From NCBI GenBank assembly GCA_030427805.1, contig JAUICP010000006.1, positions 138,364-202,363 of the forward strand: 64,000 nucleotides of DNA, in the 5' to 3' direction. Under the pieces are notes generated by a model that was not told where the DNA came from, made no database searches, and saw only the letters and a program-made list of their open reading frames with translations. The translations under genes were made by a program, and so were the position numbers. Every line of letters begins with the position of its first letter. Within the stretch, counting starts at the first letter, position 1. Below, piece after piece: positions 14,583 through 23,189 of this stretch. The stretch is from Bdellovibrionia bacterium. Its GTDB lineage: Bacteria; Bdellovibrionota; Bdellovibrionia; Bdellovibrionales; JAGQZY01.

Positions 14583-15287
14583 CTATTTCGTTGACGGCGG
14601 TGCTTTATCGCAAATTTCTAAAAGTTGGCGAAGATCCTCACACTCCCTTATAAGTTGTGCTCCTTCAAAAAGAAGTTTTAGATTTCCGGCAAATTGAGGG
14701 GAATCTGGAAAACTCGGCAAGCAGGCAATGGTTTTTCCGTGCTTCATCGCCCATCCGGCTGACATATAGGATCCACTGGGAAGTCCCGCTTGAATGAGCA
14801 AAAGAAGTTCTGAACTTGCAGCTATTAATCGGTTTCTCATAAAAAAGTGATACTTCTTCATTTCTTCGTCGGGAGGAAATTCACTAATTAAACAACCTCC
14901 ACGCTGTAGGATTTTTTCGTAAATTTCTATGGAAGATTTCGGATAAGGCTGTCTAATTCCAGAGGGCAGAAAGGCCACAGTTGGGCACGATTGATCCATG
15001 GACAACTGGTGAACATAAGAATCAACACCTCGGGCACCGCCACTGATACTGACAAGGGAGTTATCGATGAATAGCTCTGTAAGGTGAACTCTCATCCAAT
15101 GAATGGATTGCGGCGTCGGATTACGACTCCCTACAATTGAAATTCGTTTTTTCTGCAAAAGACTGAGATCGCCTAAAAAATAGAGCTCTTGAGGTGGAGA
15201 GACCATAGCCTTGAACCCAGGAGGCATTCGCTCATCGTCTTCGTCGATTCGATTTATTTCTTTATAAAGACTCTGAAGGTATTCCAT
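14583..15287 (-). CDS. dprA: DNA-processing protein DprA/Smf (short form)
   Basis: Rossmann-like DprA core: ISIVGSRNPT...VSISGGARGVDSYVHQ...TVAFLPSGI...YPKSS...GCLISEFPP. Confidence 0.85.
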   Translation of the reverse strand: MEYLQSLYKEINRIDEDDERMPPGFKAMVSPPQELYFLGDLSLLQKKRISIVGSRNPTPQSIHWMRVHLTELFIDNSLVSISGGARGVDSYVHQLSMDQSCPTVAFLPSGIRQPYPKSSIEIYEKILQRGGCLISEFPPDEEMKKYHFFMRNRLIAASSELLLLIQAGLPSGSYMSAGWAMKHGKTIACLPSFPDSPQFAGNLKLLFEGAQLIRECEDLRQLLEICDKAPPSTK

Positions 15288-15399: not shown

Positions 15400-17406
15400 C
15401 TATAGGTCGTCATCCTCATCTTCGTCATCTTCGTCATCGAGATCTTCGTCTTCTTCATCTCCATCAGTGAAAAATTCCGAACTCAATCCCGCTGATGCCG
15501 AATCACTTTCTAGGTCTTCTTCGTCATCAAGCTCTTCCGGATCCTCGAGTAGTCTAAACTGATCGGGAGTCACCTCTTTAAAGTTATCGCTATCATCTTC
15601 CGGAACGTAAACGTCTAAATCTTTTCTTAAAACAGTTAATCCAGTTCGATCGCCAGGACGTATATCGTCAAAAGATTTAACAACAAGGGCCGTCGAAACA
15701 TCATTATAAACTTTAACAATCTTCAACAAAGCACTGTAGTCTGGGGCCTGAAGAATCACTGGATTTTTAAGTCTCTTCGTTCGATCTGCAGAAACCGCTA
15801 ATATGTCCCCCACCTGAAGACCTTGGCCCGCACCTCGATCTAAATAAACAATCCCACCAATTCCAAAGAGCTCACGCTTTTTATTAAACTGACCACCGAT
15901 AATTGAGGCCACGATATTTTTTGGAGTACCCTCAACGTTAAAAGTAAAACGTGGAAGGTTTTCATTGATCAGACTGGAACCAACCCAAACTTGATTGACC
16001 GCATTTGTAACTATGGCCCTATAGTATCCAGAACCTTGATCGATTACATCCGTGATCGTAACTTCCCCTTGGACCTCTATAATCTGACCAAGAATTCCCG
16101 TCTCATCCGAAAGAATTTCTTTTTTCTGTATGACTGTAAAACGCTCACCAATCCGGGCCGGTTGATCAACGCGAAGGTAAGTATATTGGTAATTTGATAC
16201 AACTTCGTTGGCCGCTTGGTTTTCGACAACCTGACCCACTTCGGGTAATTGCGAATCAGTAATGAAGTTGGCTAATGTAATCACTGGCTCTTTATAAAGC
16301 GCTGGGCGATCTCCTACTGCAAAACCTAACTCGTCAAATTCGGACTTAATCAATTCACTTCGTTTTACCAATGAAGGTGGGAACTTCTTTAGAACATCTG
16401 ATTTCTTTTTAATAGGCTCAGGAATTTTAGGTGCCCCCGGAAGAAGAAACGTCGGAGTCTTTTTTACGAACCTCTGAATATTTGGAACATTATCAGCATA
16501 CTTTGGAGCTGGCGGCTCGAGTGTTTCTTCTGGAAGTTCTACAGCTAAATCTTCAGGTTCTGGCGAAACTTCTTCTTCGACCTCTGCCGGCTCGACTTCA
16601 TAGGATTGGTCAGTATCGATTGCGATCGACGAATCCGCCCCATCGGCAACTTGAGTGATTTCCAACTGAGGTCCCATCTCGGTTGTTCCGCCGACAAAGT
16701 TAAGGCGGTCACCCTTGTTAATAAGGTGAGGATTTGTAATTCGACCATTGACTGCCCAAAGTTTCGACCAGAAAAACCCATCACCAAAAAAGATTTGCGA
16801 AATTTCCCAAAGGGTATCTCCCGATTGAACTTCGTAATCATTGGCGCCCAAAGATCCGAACTCTTTTTCCCATTCCTCATCGGTAATGGGACTACTTTGG
16901 TAATTGAGATAAATTTTGTGCAGTCGTTCCTCGAGAGCCACATCGCGAAAGTTGTCGAACTGAGGTTCAGAAAATGCGTCTTCAACCAGCTCTTGATCTA
17001 ATTCAATTTCGCTCTCTTCTTGAGAGATTTCTTCTTCGCCTTCTTCAATAAAGATGTCGTCAGCCAATTCGTCGAGCTCACCATCCTCTTCCAAATCCTC
17101 ATCGGTAATCTCTTCATCTTCTAGAACTTCACCGGCGAAAATATCGTCTTCTGTTCCATCGGCTTCGGTGACTTCCTCTCCATCTTCATCGCTATCGTCG
17201 TCTTCGTCACCATCAACAATCTCTTCATCTTCTTCGCCCTCGTCATCATCATCTTCATCACTATCATCGTCTTCGTCGAGTTGAGCGATCAAAAAGGGAG
17301 ATTTAAAACTAGAGGGATTCTTAACTTGAGCCACAGCTCTTTCGCCAAGAAAATCTCCACCTAACAATAAAGTTAGTATGAAAAAAAGAAATAAAAGAAG
17401 TTTCAT
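15400..17406 (-). CDS. secreted LysM-domain protein with hyperacidic N- and C-terminal tracts
   Basis: Signal peptide MKLLLFLFFILTLLLG. LysM domain YEVQSGDTLWEISQIFFGDGFFWSKLWAVNGRITNPHLINKGDRLNF. D/E tracts occur near both ends (DEDDDSDEDDDDEGEEDEE...; ...DEEDEDLDDEDDEDEDDDL). Confidence 0.85.
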   Translation of the reverse strand: MKLLLFLFFILTLLLGGDFLGERAVAQVKNPSSFKSPFLIAQLDEDDDSDEDDDDEGEEDEEIVDGDEDDDSDEDGEEVTEADGTEDDIFAGEVLEDEEITDEDLEEDGELDELADDIFIEEGEEEISQEESEIELDQELVEDAFSEPQFDNFRDVALEERLHKIYLNYQSSPITDEEWEKEFGSLGANDYEVQSGDTLWEISQIFFGDGFFWSKLWAVNGRITNPHLINKGDRLNFVGGTTEMGPQLEITQVADGADSSIAIDTDQSYEVEPAEVEEEVSPEPEDLAVELPEETLEPPAPKYADNVPNIQRFVKKTPTFLLPGAPKIPEPIKKKSDVLKKFPPSLVKRSELIKSEFDELGFAVGDRPALYKEPVITLANFITDSQLPEVGQVVENQAANEVVSNYQYTYLRVDQPARIGERFTVIQKKEILSDETGILGQIIEVQGEVTITDVIDQGSGYYRAIVTNAVNQVWVGSSLINENLPRFTFNVEGTPKNIVASIIGGQFNKKRELFGIGGIVYLDRGAGQGLQVGDILAVSADRTKRLKNPVILQAPDYSALLKIVKVYNDVSTALVVKSFDDIRPGDRTGLTVLRKDLDVYVPEDDSDNFKEVTPDQFRLLEDPEELDDEEDLESDSASAGLSSEFFTDGDEEDEDLDDEDDEDEDDDL

Positions 17407-18055: not shown

Positions 18056-18431
18056 ACTCAAGCACTCCATTGCTTAAGAAGTCCAATATTTAGTTTAGAT
18101 GGATATTAATGATCTGCAACAAGGATTATTCATCGAATCAAAATCCCTGTTTTTGGGCACCAATTTGTTCGTAAATATCCTAATAAATTTCTGACAGAAA
18201 CTTATCCACAATTCCTGTGAATTTTCCACCTCTCTAGACCTTGGACCCATTGTAACACAAGGGCTTCAGCGAATTGCTTAATGATAAAGCACATTTTAAA
18301 TACATGAAATTACTGGATTATTTTAAATTTTTTCATTTTTTTTGGGTTTTTCTGTACGGGAACTTACATCCGAAAATCGAATTTCTAAACTTTTCTGTCA
18401 CGTTTTTCGCGGCCAGACGTTGGAAGGCTAT

Positions 18432-19316
18432 ATGCTAAAAAGTGCCAATATGCGCCTGTTTATTGCTGTTTGCTTATCGATAGTATTAGCAGATGTTTTT
18501 GATCTGCTGAGTTATTTGGCAAACGCAATCCTAACAATTCACAAACAGTGTCTTGTCATCGCACCCGATATCCACCAAAAGCCTTTAATTCAGGCACTCC
18601 TATGTGGACGCAGTTTAGCAAAAGGTCCTCTTTATTCAGCATTACAAAGCACAGGATTACTCCACCTGATCGTCGTTTCCGGAGCCCATTTGGTCTTCAT
18701 TGAACAAAATTTAAACTTTCTCTGCAGAAAACTTAAATTATTAGAATATTTTCGACTTCCCCTCTTAATCGCCTTTAGTTTCGCCACAAACTTTCAGGCA
18801 CCAATCGCAAGGGCTCTTTGTTTTAGACTCTTTAGAAAGCTCAGTCGGTCCTTAGGATTGAATCACCCACCCCTTCTCAGTTCACTATTGAGCGGCCTGA
18901 TCCTTCTTACCTTTATCCCCCAGTGGAGTCAGTCCTACTCCTTTCATCTCAGTTGGGTGGCCCAACTCGCACTTCTTTTGGGTAGCGAGAATAAAAGTAG
19001 ATTTCAGCAGTTTGCAATTTACTTCCTTTTGCTTCCCTTACTCATACCACTCGGGCCTCCCCACCCCATTAGCATTCTCCTCAACTTACTAGTGACCCCC
19101 TTGATTGGTTTTTTACTAATACCCGCAGCCCTTTTTGCCTGCCTTCTCTTTCCGCTTTGGCCCGGTTTCGTAGAGTTTATCTGGAGAAACCTAGAACACT
19201 TCTTTCTTTGGTTGGGCCAAGTCAGTCCCGATTCACTTTACTCAAGCCCCTTGCCGGGAGTTTTTATATATTCTTTCGCCCTGCAATTTTTCTTTTGTAG
19301 AAAATTTCTTCGGTAG
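18432..19316 (+). CDS. comEC: ComEC/Rec2 competence-channel domain protein (membrane part only)
   Basis: Polytopic membrane protein with the competence-domain hallmark TGLLHLIVVSGAHLVFI. The start is taken at the ATG at 18432 (GGAAGG upstream). The ORF track opens at 18342. Confidence 0.75.
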   Translation: MLKSANMRLFIAVCLSIVLADVFDLLSYLANAILTIHKQCLVIAPDIHQKPLIQALLCGRSLAKGPLYSALQSTGLLHLIVVSGAHLVFIEQNLNFLCRKLKLLEYFRLPLLIAFSFATNFQAPIARALCFRLFRKLSRSLGLNHPPLLSSLLSGLILLTFIPQWSQSYSFHLSWVAQLALLLGSENKSRFQQFAIYFLLLPLLIPLGPPHPISILLNLLVTPLIGFLLIPAALFACLLFPLWPGFVEFIWRNLEHFFLWLGQVSPDSLYSSPLPGVFIYSFALQFFFCRKFLR

Positions 19317-19323
19317 GTCTATC

Positions 19324-20013
19324 TTGAAGCAATTTGCCTTTATTTTACTCACCTTAAGTTCCATGCATTGCGATCACGATCCTTTTTTAGGTTTTATCAT
19401 CTGGAATGTTGGACAAGGGCAGATGGTGACCTCAGTGACTCCAGAATCTTGCATTAATTTTGACTTTGGCGGGGAAAAGTTTCCACGAAAGGGCTACCAA
19501 AAACTTTGCCAAAACAAAAAGCAGGTCACCTACATTTCTCACTACGATCGAGATCATTTCAACTTTCTTTATAAAGTAAAGTCACTCAATCATTGTCTGG
19601 CCCTTAAGAATCGACCAAAAACACTAAGGCTTGGAATTCCTCTTTGCAAAGAATCAATTCTTAAAAAGGTTTCGTCTTTTAAAAACCAAGGAGCTTCAAA
19701 AAATAATTCAGGGTTTCTTCTCTATTACAAGGGTTTTTACTTTCCTGGTGATGCCGACACCAGGTTCGAAGGCTGGTCCTTCAAGGCGAAGCAAGCTCAC
19801 GAAGTGAAGTTTCTAATGCTTGCCCATCATGGTAGTAATACATCCAATGGCGAGAAACTTTTTTCATCTTTCAAGAACTTAAAGATGGTATTTGCTAGCG
19901 CTCGCAAGAACAAATACGGCCATCCCCATTGGCAAGTCCTTCACCGAATCAAACAAAAGAAGATTCCACTCATCAGAACCGAAACCTGGGGCCACATCGC
20001 CCTCCCCCACTAA
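19324..20013 (+). CDS. ComEC-type metallo-beta-lactamase domain protein (separate frame from the channel domain)
   Basis: IWNVGQGQM, ISHYDRDH (HxHxDH with the second His changed to Asp), FPGDAD and LAHHGS match the C-terminal MBL domain of ComEC. It starts 8 nt after the stop of the previous ORF, in the +1 frame. Confidence 0.75.
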   Translation: MKQFAFILLTLSSMHCDHDPFLGFIIWNVGQGQMVTSVTPESCINFDFGGEKFPRKGYQKLCQNKKQVTYISHYDRDHFNFLYKVKSLNHCLALKNRPKTLRLGIPLCKESILKKVSSFKNQGASKNNSGFLLYYKGFYFPGDADTRFEGWSFKAKQAHEVKFLMLAHHGSNTSNGEKLFSSFKNLKMVFASARKNKYGHPHWQVLHRIKQKKIPLIRTETWGHIALPH

Positions 20014-20178
20014 TTTTTTACCTCTCCCTGTACAAAAATCCTCTTCTATTTTTTATTTTCTCCCCGAGCCTGACTCTCCCATTTTTTTGAGTTCCGCAGC
20101 CCAAACAGGGCCCGGAGCTCCCTTGGGTAAGATATAGGTGTCTTCCCATTATTAAACTCTCGAACTCTCCCTAAATTT
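20014..20178 (+). repeat. left arm of a ~420-bp foldback (inverted repeat)
   Basis: It aligns end to end with the reverse complement of 20267..20432. Shared blocks are CCTCTCCCTGTACAAAAAT, TTTCTCCCCGAGCCTGACTC, CCAAACAGGGCCCGGAG and ATTATTAAACTCTCGAACTCTCCCTAAATTT. Confidence 0.9.
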
Positions 20179-20266
20179 ACTCAAACAGTCCTCGGCGCTG
20201 ATCATTCCCCAAAACAAAAAAGGCGAGTCAGCAAATTATGAATAAAGACTTGGCCTGCGGAACTCG

Positions 20267-20432
20267 AAATTTAGGGAGAGTTCGAGAGTTTAATAATAGA
20301 AAGACAAATACCCAAGGAAACTCCGGGCCCTGTTTGGGTGAAGACTGTCTGAAAAAAATGGGAAATGAGTCAGGCTCGGGGAGAAAACTACTAAAAATAG
20401 AGAAATATTTTTGTACAGGGAGAGGCAAAAAA
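20267..20432 (-). repeat. right arm of the foldback
   Basis: It is the reverse complement of the left arm, at roughly 75-80% identity by hand alignment. Read on the + strand, it runs directly into the terminator at 20427..20458. Confidence 0.9.
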
Positions 20433-20458
20433 AAGAGACCGGGTGAGGTCTCTTTTTT
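20427..20458. terminator. bidirectional intrinsic terminator (ald on the minus strand; any + transcript of the foldback)
   Basis: AAAAAAA-AGAGACC-gggtga-GGTCTCT-TTTTT, 26 nt after the ald stop. Confidence 0.7.
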
Positions 20459-20483
20459 GGGTATTCACATTTGGAACGTGAAA

Positions 20484-21593
20484 TTACATGGGCTTGTAAG
20501 GAACGTAAGGCATATCCAAGTCCTTAGCGACTGGTTCGTAAGTTACGTTACCGTTGTAGACGTTAATACCATCTACAAGCTCAGGAGCTTTCGTTGCCGC
20601 TTCTTCAACACCAAACTTGGCAAGAAGTGAGGCATACTTGAAAGTTGCATTTGTAAGAGCATATGTACTCGTACGGGCAACAACACCTGGCATATTCGGT
20701 ACACAGTAGTGAACCACTCCGTCCACTTCATAAGTAGGCTGAGCGTGAGAGGTCGGTTTACACGTCTCGATACATCCACCTTGGTCAACGGCAACATCGA
20801 CAACGACAGAACCAGGGGCCATGCTCGAAATCATTTCTTTAGTAACAAGGTGTGGAGCCTTGCGACCGTGAATAAGAACAGCACCAATGACAAGGTCAGA
20901 CTCTTGAACAGAGCGTTCGATATTGTGTTGGTTTGAATAAATCGTAGTAATTTGGTTACCGTAAACATTGTCGAGGTATTCAAGACGATCGTGATTCACG
21001 TCAATCACGCGAACTTCAGCACCAAGGCCCACTGCCATAGTCAAAGCATTCGTACCAACAACTCCACCACCGATAATGGTAACGATTCCGCGACGAACAC
21101 CGGTCACTCCACCAAGGAGTACGCCTTTTCCGCCCTGATCTTTTTGTAGGTAGAAAGCACCCACTTGGGTTGCCATGCGACCAGCCACTTCACTCATCGG
21201 TTTCAATAGAGGAAGTGAGTTATTTGGACCTTCGATTGTTTCATAGGCAACGGCTTTTACCTTTTTCTCACAAAGAACTTTTGTGAGTTTTGGCTCGGCA
21301 GCCAAGTGAAGATAGGTATAGAGAATTTGATTTTCTTTCATGCGATCAAATTCGTCTGGGAGAGGCTCTTTCACCTTAACAATCATATCGGCCTGGGCCC
21401 AAAGCTCATCGGCCGTATTGATAATTTTGGCTCCGACTTTTTCGTATTGTTCATTGGTAATCATTGAACCAAGGCCGGCGTCTTTTTCGACGAGAAGAGT
21501 GTGACCTTCTGTCACGAGTTGACGAACACCTGCTTCGGTCAAACCAACGCGGTTTTCACTAATCTTAATTTCTTTTGGCACACCAATAATCAT
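20484..21593 (-). CDS. ald: alanine dehydrogenase
   Basis: [23 protein letters not shown]... plus the NAD-binding GGGVVGTNA. About 370 aa, as is typical. I place the start at the ATG at 21593 (GGAGGG upstream), not the GTG at 21605. Confidence 0.93.
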
Positions 21594-21716
21594 GGCACCC
21601 TCCACACATAGGAATGTTTAAAGACTCTTGTGTATAACGAAAAGCCTGGCGAAGGGCAATAAGGGCCTAAAAATAATGATAATTTGTGCATTCGCACGAA
21701 GTATTTTTTGAAAGCT

Positions 21717-22637: not shown

Positions 22638-22884
22638 AGCAACCTCTCCTCGGTACTAACATCCGCTTGAGCTTTACTGCCTAATAGAGCAAGTTAGATA
22701 CCAATGAGGACTCTCTAAAAATTGTTAAGCTAGAATCCGTCTATTAATAGCTGAGTTCAGTAAAAGCTCAAGCAAATCTAATGCTTCGCGCATTCTGTTA
22801 CTTTTTTTCAACAGTCTGTATGGTTTTTCGGAGACACAGAACTGGTCTAGAGGTCTTGCTTAGAAAGTCCGATCCAAACTTGAA

Positions 22885-23163
22885 ATGTATTGTTTTACCC
22901 TTTTGAGACCCCTTATTTTGGCGACTGTTTTCAGTACTTTAGGCTGTGCCACAGCCAGTACTAACAGCTATGTGGGATCGAGCCCTCCGGCAAATAATTC
23001 CAATGCCAGGGCTGCCGCCTACACGGTCGATGGGTTTCAAATTGATAAGAAATGGAGTTCGGGAAAACCGACAGATTTTCAATTTTTCTACAAAGAATGC
23101 GAGCTCTCACGAAGAGCCCACTTTACGAAGGCCGATTACGACTGCTTTAAACTTGGTTTTTAA
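22885..23163 (+). CDS. small secreted protein / probable lipoprotein, unknown function
   Basis: 92 aa with the N-terminus MYCFTLLRPLILATVFSTLGCATAS (signal peptide with Cys). No recognisable domain. Confidence 0.55.
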   Translation: MYCFTLLRPLILATVFSTLGCATASTNSYVGSSPPANNSNARAAAYTVDGFQIDKKWSSGKPTDFQFFYKECELSRRAHFTKADYDCFKLGF

Positions 23164-23189
23164 TACCTACTGAGACAAAGCCCTTGAGA

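Follow-up and report, generated by a model that had tools for sequence, protein, structure and literature searches.

A 419-bp quasi-palindrome between converging comEC-type and ald genes in Bdellovibrionia, with paired changes on both arms and opposite orientation in two sister lineages

Inverted repeats of several kinds have been described. Miniature inverted-repeat transposable elements (MITEs) and foldback repeats of bacteria, such as Correia/CREE in Neisseria, ERIC/IRU in enterobacteria, RUP and BOX, form families whose members, 100-200 bp long and dispersed in tens to hundreds of copies, are usually flanked by target-site duplications, while REP units are highly repeated, measure 20-40 nt and, like BIMEs, sit at the operon ends. 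The palindromes of the human Y chromosome and the plastid inverted repeats extend over kilobases to megabases, carry genes and undergo arm-to-arm gene conversion. The present analysis concerns a palindrome found in a 64-kb stretch of DNA from a Bdellovibrionia bacterium (assembly GCA_030427805.1, contig JAUICP010000006.1, positions 138,364 to 202,363); the whole stretch is referred to as the window, and all positions are those of the window unless a locus is named. The element occupies positions 20014-20432, between a gene for the metallo-beta-lactamase (MBL)-like half of ComEC and the converging alanine dehydrogenase gene, ald. It is present in two sister lineages and absent from the outgroups, lies inverted as a whole in one lineage relative to the other, has changed on both sides of many of its base pairs, carries footprints of internal copies and consists of parts that differ several-fold in their rate of change.

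The element belongs to no named family, and its nearest kind is the quasi-palindrome maintained by template switching, of which it is an unusually large one. Template switching homogenises the arms of inverted repeats and makes multi-base compensatory changes, and it inverts the intervening sequence between the repeats, as set out in three published accounts (PMC8794818; PMC5941160; PMC8604942). The cases usually treated resemble the present element in that the arms change together, with mirrored and clustered multi-nucleotide replacements, the patches resemble nearby sequence and inversion takes place between the repeats. They differ from it in size, with stems of a few to tens of bases as against arms of ~165 bp and a total of 419 bp, and in extent, a short spacer being inverted instead of the whole unit; moreover, the mechanism is read here from sequence patterns only.

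The element and its immediate surroundings comprise the following features.

19324..20013, + strand: upstream gene, C-terminal (MBL-like) half of ComEC (TIGR00361 ComEC_Rec2 C-terminus, E = 3e-11, below the curated cut-off)
20014..20178 (165 nt), no strand assigned: arm A, 83% identical to arm B once the latter is reverse-complemented
20100..20117, no strand assigned: most variable paired block on arm A, CCCAAACAGGGCCCGGAG, with its partner on arm B at 20321-20338
20179..20266 (88 nt), no strand assigned: spacer (apical loop), its ends conserved and its core replaced between lineages
20267..20432 (166 nt), no strand assigned: arm B of the palindrome, its outer A-run overlapping the A-tract of the terminator
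20321..20338, no strand assigned: partner, on arm B, of block 20100-20117, CTCCGGGCCCTGTTTGGG, from the inverted-repeat search, with two-sided pair changes
20429..20458, no strand assigned: bidirectional intrinsic terminator, 12-bp stem and 6-nt loop, common to the ComEC operon and ald
20484..21593, - strand: converging gene, alanine dehydrogenase (ald; AlaDh_PNT_N/C, E = 8e-86)

A preliminary description, made from the sequence of the window alone, had recognised two arms at 20014-20178 and 20267-20432 around an unrelated 88-nt spacer, between converging ComEC-type and ald genes; alignment confirms the former and the domain matches the latter. The identity of the arms, estimated there at 75-80%, was measured as slightly higher, with 144 of 174 columns identical (83%) in a global alignment of arm A with the reverse complement of arm B. 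The alignment score of 200 compares with -62 +/- 12 (maximum -28) for 300 shuffles; the inverted repeat is real and far above chance. All the six blocks quoted as identical or nearly so were found verbatim in the arm-arm alignment, and the indels given as 2, 3 and 5 nt proved to be 2+1, 3, 3 (with a compensating 1) and 7 (split 3+1+3). The G+C content of the element is 42%, that of the window 44%. The element was said to fill the whole gap between the converging genes, and it does take up most of it: from the MBL stop codon (20013) to the ald stop codon (20484) there are 470 nt, of which 419 belong to the element and the remaining 51 to the terminator and the ald 3' tail. In the window lineage, arm A directly abuts the MBL/ComEC stop codon. 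No reading frame is kept across both lineages carrying the element, in agreement with its description as non-coding. A spurious ATG open reading frame (ORF) of 130 aa (20238-20630, + strand), not preserved in the sister locus L084, begins inside the spacer, runs through arm B and the terminator and antisense into ald, and could be called by automatic annotation.

The locus was recovered from other assemblies by exact-protein look-ups, and the sister, outgroup and same-lineage loci thus obtained are labelled L001-L004 and L084-L088. The exact ald protein was recovered from public assemblies, in which the MBL-like gene is annotated as 196-229 aa. To the lineage of the window belong the Logan contigs L001/L002 and L088, which are 100% identical to it, and L003, from the metagenome-assembled genome (MAG) GCA_041259675.1, which is 98.7% identical overall; L001/L002 carry arm B at 100% identity, joined to ald. 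The sister lineage is represented by L084 (GCA_030424665.1) and the Logan contig L085, with a 477-bp gap at the same position. The site is filled in the window, L001/L088, L003, L084 and L085 and empty in L086, L087 and L004, loci of two outgroup lineages, where the gaps of 83, 83 and 55 bp, respectively, lack the element and already hold the terminator. Synonymous divergence (dS) between the window and L084 is 0.28-0.49 and exceeds 1.5 against L086, which makes the two filled lineages sisters relative to L086. One gain is thus the parsimonious history, and a single gain in the common ancestor of the window and L084/L085 lineages is most likely. The boundaries of the element are the same in both lineages, the stop codon on one side and the terminator A-tract on the other. 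A search for more lineages through MBL homologues gave only three clusters in the protein collection, and no long inverted repeats were found downstream of ald in more distant Bdellovibrionia (L004-L007). A likeness between the 29-nt outgroup spacer and the element (TTCCCTAAA vs CTCCCTAAA) was set aside as being at chance level by a rough estimate.

The intrinsic terminator noted after the right arm is a real hairpin with a 12-bp stem at 20429-20458, the stem halves being AAAAAAGAGACC (20429-20440) and GGTCTCTTTTTT (20447-20458), flanked by A- and T-tracts. L084/L085 have this hairpin too, as does the empty site of L086/L087, with an analogous one in L004; the terminator therefore belongs to the locus, is older than the element and forms no part of it. 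Like terminators and stabiliser hairpins of 3' untranslated regions (UTRs), the element lies at an operon 3' end between converging genes and has hairpin potential on either strand; unlike intrinsic terminators, its hairpin precedes an A-run and not a U-run, and the real terminator is separate and exists without it.

The element in the sister lineage is inverted as a whole, in place. Between the window and L084, the arms are 74% and 70% identical when compared crosswise and 64% and 64% when compared in parallel, so that the orthologue of arm A is the ald-side arm of L084 (74% vs 64% identity); in the window lineage arm A adjoins the MBL stop codon, in the sister lineage it adjoins ald. Of 28 columns in which the arms differ in both genomes, 22 match crosswise and one in parallel, every arm-specific indel included. 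The spacer is 68% identical when inverted and 50% identical in the same orientation, and its ends, ACTCAAACAGTCCTCGGC and GGCCTGCGGAACTCG, show no difference between the window and L084. Orientation is uniform within a lineage (3 of 3 assemblies of the window lineage, 2 of 2 of the L084 lineage). The three contigs L001/L002, L088 and L003, independent of one another and assembled from short reads, all end inside the element (window 20147-20177 / 20268-20298); the Logan contigs, built with k=31, cover without a break the ~134 nt on the outside of either arm and stop only at a single inner block of 31 nt, because the k=31 graph ends where a block of that length is identical between the arms of the inverted repeat. 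The longest arm-arm identity run in L084/L085 is below 31 nt, and both assemble through the element. Since there is no run of at least 31 nt in L084, and since the window-lineage arms are each joined to their own flank in independent contigs, the flip is not an assembly artefact. The locus is a systematic assembly breakpoint in the window lineage, which explains the breaks of short-read assemblies between ComEC and ald. L001/L002/L088 derive from run ERR3428547 and L085 from ERR3428543; with such neighbouring accessions the sister lineages probably come from the same study or habitat, and the two orientations may co-occur.

Four short segments inside the element bear both on the inversion and on the folding discussed further below.

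20089..20099, no strand assigned: segment a, GAGTTCCGCAG, on the arm-A side of the principal internal loop, its complement lying at 20255-20265
20182..20195, no strand assigned: segment b*, CAAACAGTCCTCGG, arm-A end of the spacer, complementary to 20339-20351
20255..20265, no strand assigned: segment a*, CTGCGGAACTC, arm-B end of the spacer, inverted copy of a
20339..20351, no strand assigned: segment b, TGAAGACTGTCTG, arm-B side of the main internal loop, opposite a

An invertible switch of the inverton or shufflon type, in which a recombinase would flip the element or its inner parts between a/a* and b/b* and thereby alter what is transcribed downstream of the ComEC operon, would account for the occurrence of both orientations across the lineages, and these segments do form two interleaved pairs of short conserved inverted sites (a>, b>, a<, b<). 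Invertons are phase-variable invertible promoters with short inverted repeats on either side and an invertase, and the element shares with them the occurrence, in both orientations, of a segment that inverted repeats delimit. Such a switch is nevertheless very improbable. No transposase, recombinase or reverse transcriptase gene lies within +/-15 kb, and no integrase, resolvase or invertase domain was found among the ORFs of at least 110 aa between ~5 and ~36 kb; neither a sigma-70-like promoter nor coding cargo was found inside the element, whose repeats form most of it instead of flanking a cargo; and each lineage has one orientation, in three and two assemblies. In addition, the flip reaches the outermost discriminating base of the arms, which recombination at a/a* or b/b* would not.

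The preliminary description took the block-wise identity of the arms as a sign of selection on motifs within each arm and not on arm-arm pairing, and the comparison with the sister lineage contradicts this. The blocks that are identical between the arms of the window are the least conserved against L084 (12-56% identity) and have changed alike on both arms there; examples are CCTCTCCCTGTACAAAAAT, CCCCGAGCCTGACTC, CCCAAACAGGGCCCGGAG and ATTATTAAACTCTCGAACTCTCCC. The block at 20100-20117 has 12-29% identity to L084, with perfect complementarity inside either genome. Those segments in which the arms differ from each other are, on the other hand, conserved across the lineages (89-92%), as in GAGTTCCGCAG vs CAGACAGTCyTCA and the 7-nt insertion in GGGTAAGATATAG. 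The complementary motifs CCCTGT (20026-20031) and ACAGGG (20105-20110), to which attention had been drawn, are both present in the window arm and neither is kept in the sister lineage, while the view that the pattern is not the uniform decay of a recent duplication is borne out. In the two-lineage alignment, RNAalifold gives 145 pairs, all of them paired in both lineages and none broken. As many as 30 of the 145 are changed on both sides; sliding the partners by 1-3 columns gives 0-6 such changes, and shuffles give 15 +/- 2.7. Covariation in this comparison of two lineages is strong. A four-arm alignment has 124 columns with Watson-Crick pairs in both genomes, and the pair differs in 34 of them. 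Pairing persists, and the motif sequence does not. Like the Y-chromosome and plastid repeats, the element has arms that are near-identical within a genome and diverge between lineages, and an intervening segment that inverts; unlike them, it is a bacterial intergenic sequence of 0.4 kb with no cargo and with stable arm-specific bulges.

Accordingly, little room is left for arms that act as ~165-nt motif units under selection, the right arm with the terminator giving a small RNA of ~190 nt, and this is regarded as the least credible of the explanations considered here, an extremely unlikely one. The identity of the blocks between the arms and the terminator after the right arm would fit it. Against it stand the low conservation of those blocks across the lineages, the location of five of the seven substitutions of the covered part of arm B in L003 inside them, and the fact that in L084 the other arm abuts the terminator, which in any case predates the element. 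No sigma-70-like promoter was found in 19800-20600, and single arms fold no better than shuffles (z = -1.3 and +0.1), so that the terminated RNA of ~190 nt proposed from the right arm finds no support.

The changes on the paired positions are of a kind that points to copying. Almost half of the double changes (14 of 30) are transversion swaps (C-G to G-C, A-U to U-A), which cannot pass through G·U, and stepwise compensation is therefore not a ready source for them. The changed pairs are clustered (runs test, p = 0.0005), and the longest run consists of 10 consecutive replaced pairs, in the block 20100-20117 / 20321-20338, a stretch of 12% identity. Templates for such patches are found nearby. 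Block 4 of the window (20100-20117) matches the start of the spacer (20182-20199) directly at 14 of 18 positions, a value reached by none of 300 shuffles; the spacer core of the window holds an inverted copy (79%) of the arm segment 20070-20088, and that of L084 duplicates the arm-spacer junction (76%, direct). In L084, block 4 reads as TCCTTTGGG twice, on both arms, and such a multi-base rearrangement, the same on both arms, is best explained by transfer between the arms. A strand-swapped (locally inverted) homology for the most variable block was considered and dropped, the similarity by eye being too weak to use. Concerted arm changes, in-place inversion and nearby templates for the patches, as expected of a template-switch quasi-palindrome, are thus all found at this locus. 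Only two sequences contribute to the covariation, whose transversion-rich and patch-wise character copying explains equally well or better.

The rates of change were compared within and between the lineages. Arm B of L003, covered from 20282 to 20432 (151 positions reached), is 94.7% identical to that of the window, with 8 differences in 152 columns (seven substitutions and one indel in the outer A-run), against 3 differences in 726 nt (99.6%) of the other intergenic DNA (p = 7e-5); the arm rate is close to synonymous (dS 0.04-0.07). In L003, ruvB (606-1637) is called as two ORFs of 124 and 217 aa and is intact in the window (343 aa), which is probably a frameshift error in GCA_041259675.1, so that single-base differences in L003 need caution. 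Against L084, identity of the orthologous arms is 70-74%, near the ~71% that dS predicts, while other intergenic DNA reaches 100% (21594-21716, 123/123), 96% (22638-23189, 530/552) and 93% (18071-18341, 253/271). The 552-nt lpxC/ruvB spacer at 22638-23189 may itself hold an unannotated conserved element, either a small gene or an RNA. Within the element, the columns 67-102 and 121-150 of the four-arm alignment form islands of 89-92% identity, and islands and spacer ends taken together range from 89 to 100%; the island boundaries were picked post hoc.

Conserved-island examples: GACTCTCCCATTTTTTTGAGTTCCGCAG, TAAATTTACTCAAACAGTCCTCGGC, GGCCTGCGGAACTCGAAATT

Measured against the ~71% expected from dS, the islands are significantly conserved, which would suggest a special purifying selection on the loops; this does not hold, since other intergenic DNA of the two lineages is 93-100% identical and the islands are therefore only as conserved as the ordinary intergenic DNA. 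The robust statements are that the paired blocks turn over in concert, at or above the neutral rate, and that the loop-bearing islands and the spacer ends change several-fold more slowly than the paired blocks. In the two lineages compared, the slow parts may be selected or may merely have been untouched by patch events.

These slow parts include the four segments listed above, all of which are 92-100% identical in L084. Exact copies of a occur in the window only at 20089-20099 (+) and 20255-20265 (-), and the b* sequence CAAACAGTCCTCGG is unique in the window; a and b* are identical in L084. The a/a* inverted repeat extends over 32 nt (81%) in the window and its L084 counterpart over 18 nt (89%), and the b/b* repeat of L084 over 18 nt (83%). 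The sequences at the base of the apical loop (b* and a*) are thus those of the internal loop (a and b) in the opposite polarity, which makes a complementary to a* and b to b*. The energy of the a:a* duplex is -23.6 / -25.3 kcal/mol. The b:b* duplex is fully paired, with G·U, only on the reverse strand of the element and has two mismatches on the forward strand, the energies of the reverse and forward strands being -20.2 vs -13.1 kcal/mol in the window and -22.9 vs -18.4 kcal/mol in L084. Likewise, the arm-arm transitions are G·U-compatible mostly on the reverse strand (10 vs 2 in the window, 9 vs 6 in L084), which folds better by 9-26 kcal/mol in both lineages; the favoured strand is the MBL-sense one in L084 and the antisense one in the window.

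A selected RNA structure would make sense of many of these features. In this explanation, a hairpin of ~150 bp would be functional in the 3' tail of ComEC or in read-through from ald, by being a target of RNase III, by blocking 3' exonucleases or by insulating the converging transcripts from one another; the stem sequence would be free as long as it is paired, and the a/b loops with their loop-loop complementarities would be the functional parts. It accords with the full retention of pairing and the 30 double-sided changes, with 89-100% identity of the islands and spacer ends as against ~71% for drift at the synonymous rate, with the a:a* and b:b* complementarities kept in both lineages, with the G·U asymmetry and the more stable reverse strand, with the sole difference in the b loop (U vs C), which leaves b:b* paired on the reverse strand, and with the persistence of the element in a genome of tightly conserved intergenic DNA. 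Since a hairpin works in either orientation, tolerance of the flip would also be explained. Conversely, transversion swaps make up half of the double changes and stand in runs as long as 10 pairs, a pattern that stepwise selection would not readily yield and that copying does; the islands are no more conserved than the ordinary intergenic DNA of the lineage pair; in the window, the MBL read-through RNA is the less well-paired strand; close relatives live without the element; and neither a promoter in 19800-20600 nor an Rfam family was found. On balance, a selected RNA structure is a candidate and yet rather unlikely. The internal symmetry of the segments and the strand asymmetry, which are the main argument for it, would equally be produced by old template-switch footprints together with strand-biased C-to-T mutation.

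The Rfam search, which had been proposed in the preliminary description, gave zero matches to Rfam 15 at the gathering score in the whole window and nothing real in the region at permissive E-values. The sub-threshold matches (window 20134-20337; L084 3817-4032) are to the plant miRNAs MIR8007, MIR2119 and MIR396 and the yeast snR86, along with MIR7533 in L084 (63 bits, E = 4e-12), all of them far below the gathering scores; they reflect generic long hairpins. A scan for tRNA and tmRNA found none. Since the only terminator lies beyond the element, the latter would have to be co-transcribed as the 3' tail of the MBL/ComEC operon.

Somewhat less likely still than a selected RNA structure in general is a functional long-hairpin module of an undescribed kind, with a stem of ~150 bp whose sequence is free to turn over. 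Its two copies of the a/b loop in opposite polarity, able to pair with each other, would have been kept constant while the stems were rewritten. The module would act at the RNA level, in the 3' tail of ComEC, or else as a cruciform in the DNA or a site of protein binding, and it would work in either orientation, so that a flip is tolerated.

Mobility was considered as a further source of the observed distribution. The presence of filled and empty orthologous sites, as for a MITE or foldback transposon, the opposite orientation in the two filled lineages, the long terminal inverted repeats, the mosaic of conserved and highly diverged modules and the breaking of short-read assemblies within the element are all compatible with two separate insertions, of opposite orientation, by diverged members of a non-autonomous foldback family into one terminator-proximal target; a transposase would then need the conserved islands. 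Like MITEs and foldback repeats, the element is non-coding and palindromic, occupies a transcribed intergenic site near a terminator, is present or absent among relatives and would give a 3' UTR hairpin. Unlike them, it was found in one copy per lineage, carries no duplication, is 2-4 times longer and has diverged as orthologues do. REP and BIME elements consist of short repeated units, whereas the arms here measure 165 nt and no other copy was found.

The searches for further copies lend such an origin no support. The window holds neither a second copy nor another long foldback, and nhmmer profiles of the element and of its arms recovered only the known copies from 90 sequences (the window and 89 loci, 934 kb). 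No match was obtained for an inner 24-mer in species-representative genomes and viral contigs or for an inner-block 20-mer in JGI metagenomes, the block being one of the variable ones, which weakens the genome scan, nor for a 20-mer from a junction conserved across the lineages in JGI metagenomes and viral contigs. In a blastn search of plasmids and phages only the terminator hairpin matched, on a Bacillus plasmid, and concatenated six-frame translations revealed no mis-called ORFs derived from the element among 5.8 billion proteins. The flanks (...CACTAA/TTTTTT... and ...AAAAAA/AAGAGACC...) show no direct repeat and hence no target-site duplication; the flanking T-run and A-run are inverted and not direct, the A-run being the terminator's own tract. 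The lack of a transposase and of an obvious target-site duplication, as described previously, was thus upheld within +/-15 kb and at the flanks. Furthermore, the boundaries are the same in both lineages, the divergence of the islands (8-11%) is near that of the vertically inherited flanks, as for orthologues, the sister relationship of the filled lineages makes a single gain more parsimonious, and the contigs break only at the 31-nt exact block, as explained by the inverted repeat itself. The alternative of an ordinary MITE, which the preliminary description had kept in view, is hence without support in the window, in the 934 kb of loci and in the collection scans, complete host genomes lying outside these searches, and two independent insertions of a MITE-like element are considered improbable.

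The reading preferred here is that of a lineage-restricted, single-locus quasi-palindrome that was gained once, has been kept paired by copying between its arms and was flipped once, and it is given about an even chance of being correct as a whole. The element would have entered immediately after the ComEC-type MBL gene's stop codon, ahead of a pre-existing bidirectional terminator that this gene shares with ald. Its primary sequence would then have been largely free to drift, at about the synonymous rate, with a change in one arm being copied onto the other by template switching within the hairpin or by intramolecular gene conversion, and with multi-base patches being copied from nearby sequence inside the element; it is from the patterns of change described above that we infer such copying. 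In one lineage, a template switch with its switch points in the outermost paired block would have flipped the whole element. As the 3' tail of the operon, the element would form an imperfect hairpin of double-stranded RNA, ~150 bp long, and a function for this long hairpin is possible.

Several points weigh against this reading. The G·U asymmetry and the better-folding strand are the expected product of selection at the RNA level, and the identity of the islands and spacer ends (89-100%, against a drift expectation of ~71%) indicates that some parts may be selected. It is somewhat surprising that a neutral insert of 420 bp should survive to a dS of ~0.37 amid intergenic DNA conserved at 93-100%. 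The term 'concerted' rests on a single comparison, that of two independent lineages, with one arm from a third strain. Finally, the evidence on copy number comes from the window, the 934 kb of loci and the collection scans, and the single genome-collection DNA scan used the variable block.

The surroundings of the element are those of a housekeeping locus. Upstream of the MBL half of ComEC lies an ORF with the PF03772 Competence domain (18342-19316). ComEC is thus represented by two adjacent ORFs (18342-19316 and 19324-20013), as it is in L004 (7165-8636) and L084 (4141-5722); its division in the relatives too makes it look like a conserved gene arrangement and not a frameshift. DprA is encoded ~3 kb upstream of the ComEC halves (14583-15287). 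Beyond ald, the locus continues with lpxC and then ruvBAC, and the genes within ~15 kb are all of the housekeeping type, including those for PBP2, RodA, an LptF/G-family permease, DprA, EF-P and TamB. A LysM-domain gene (window 15400-17406) shows 103 gap columns and 87% identity against L084, far more indel variation than its neighbours, and may hold a variable or repetitive region. The closest species-representative genome is an uncultured Pseudobdellovibrionaceae MAG.

If the element is indeed a quasi-palindrome kept paired by copying between its arms, it would provide an unusually large and clean bacterial example of a self-maintaining palindrome that was flipped between sister lineages. 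Two-sided 'compensatory' changes, which usually count as the best sign of a functional RNA structure, can here have a mutational origin, and RNA discovery based on covariation would then flag the locus as a false positive. If, on the other hand, the less favoured reading of a functional long hairpin is true, the element would be a long-hairpin cis-element of a new type, its loop modules conserved, situated in a competence-gene operon of relatives of the predatory bacteria.

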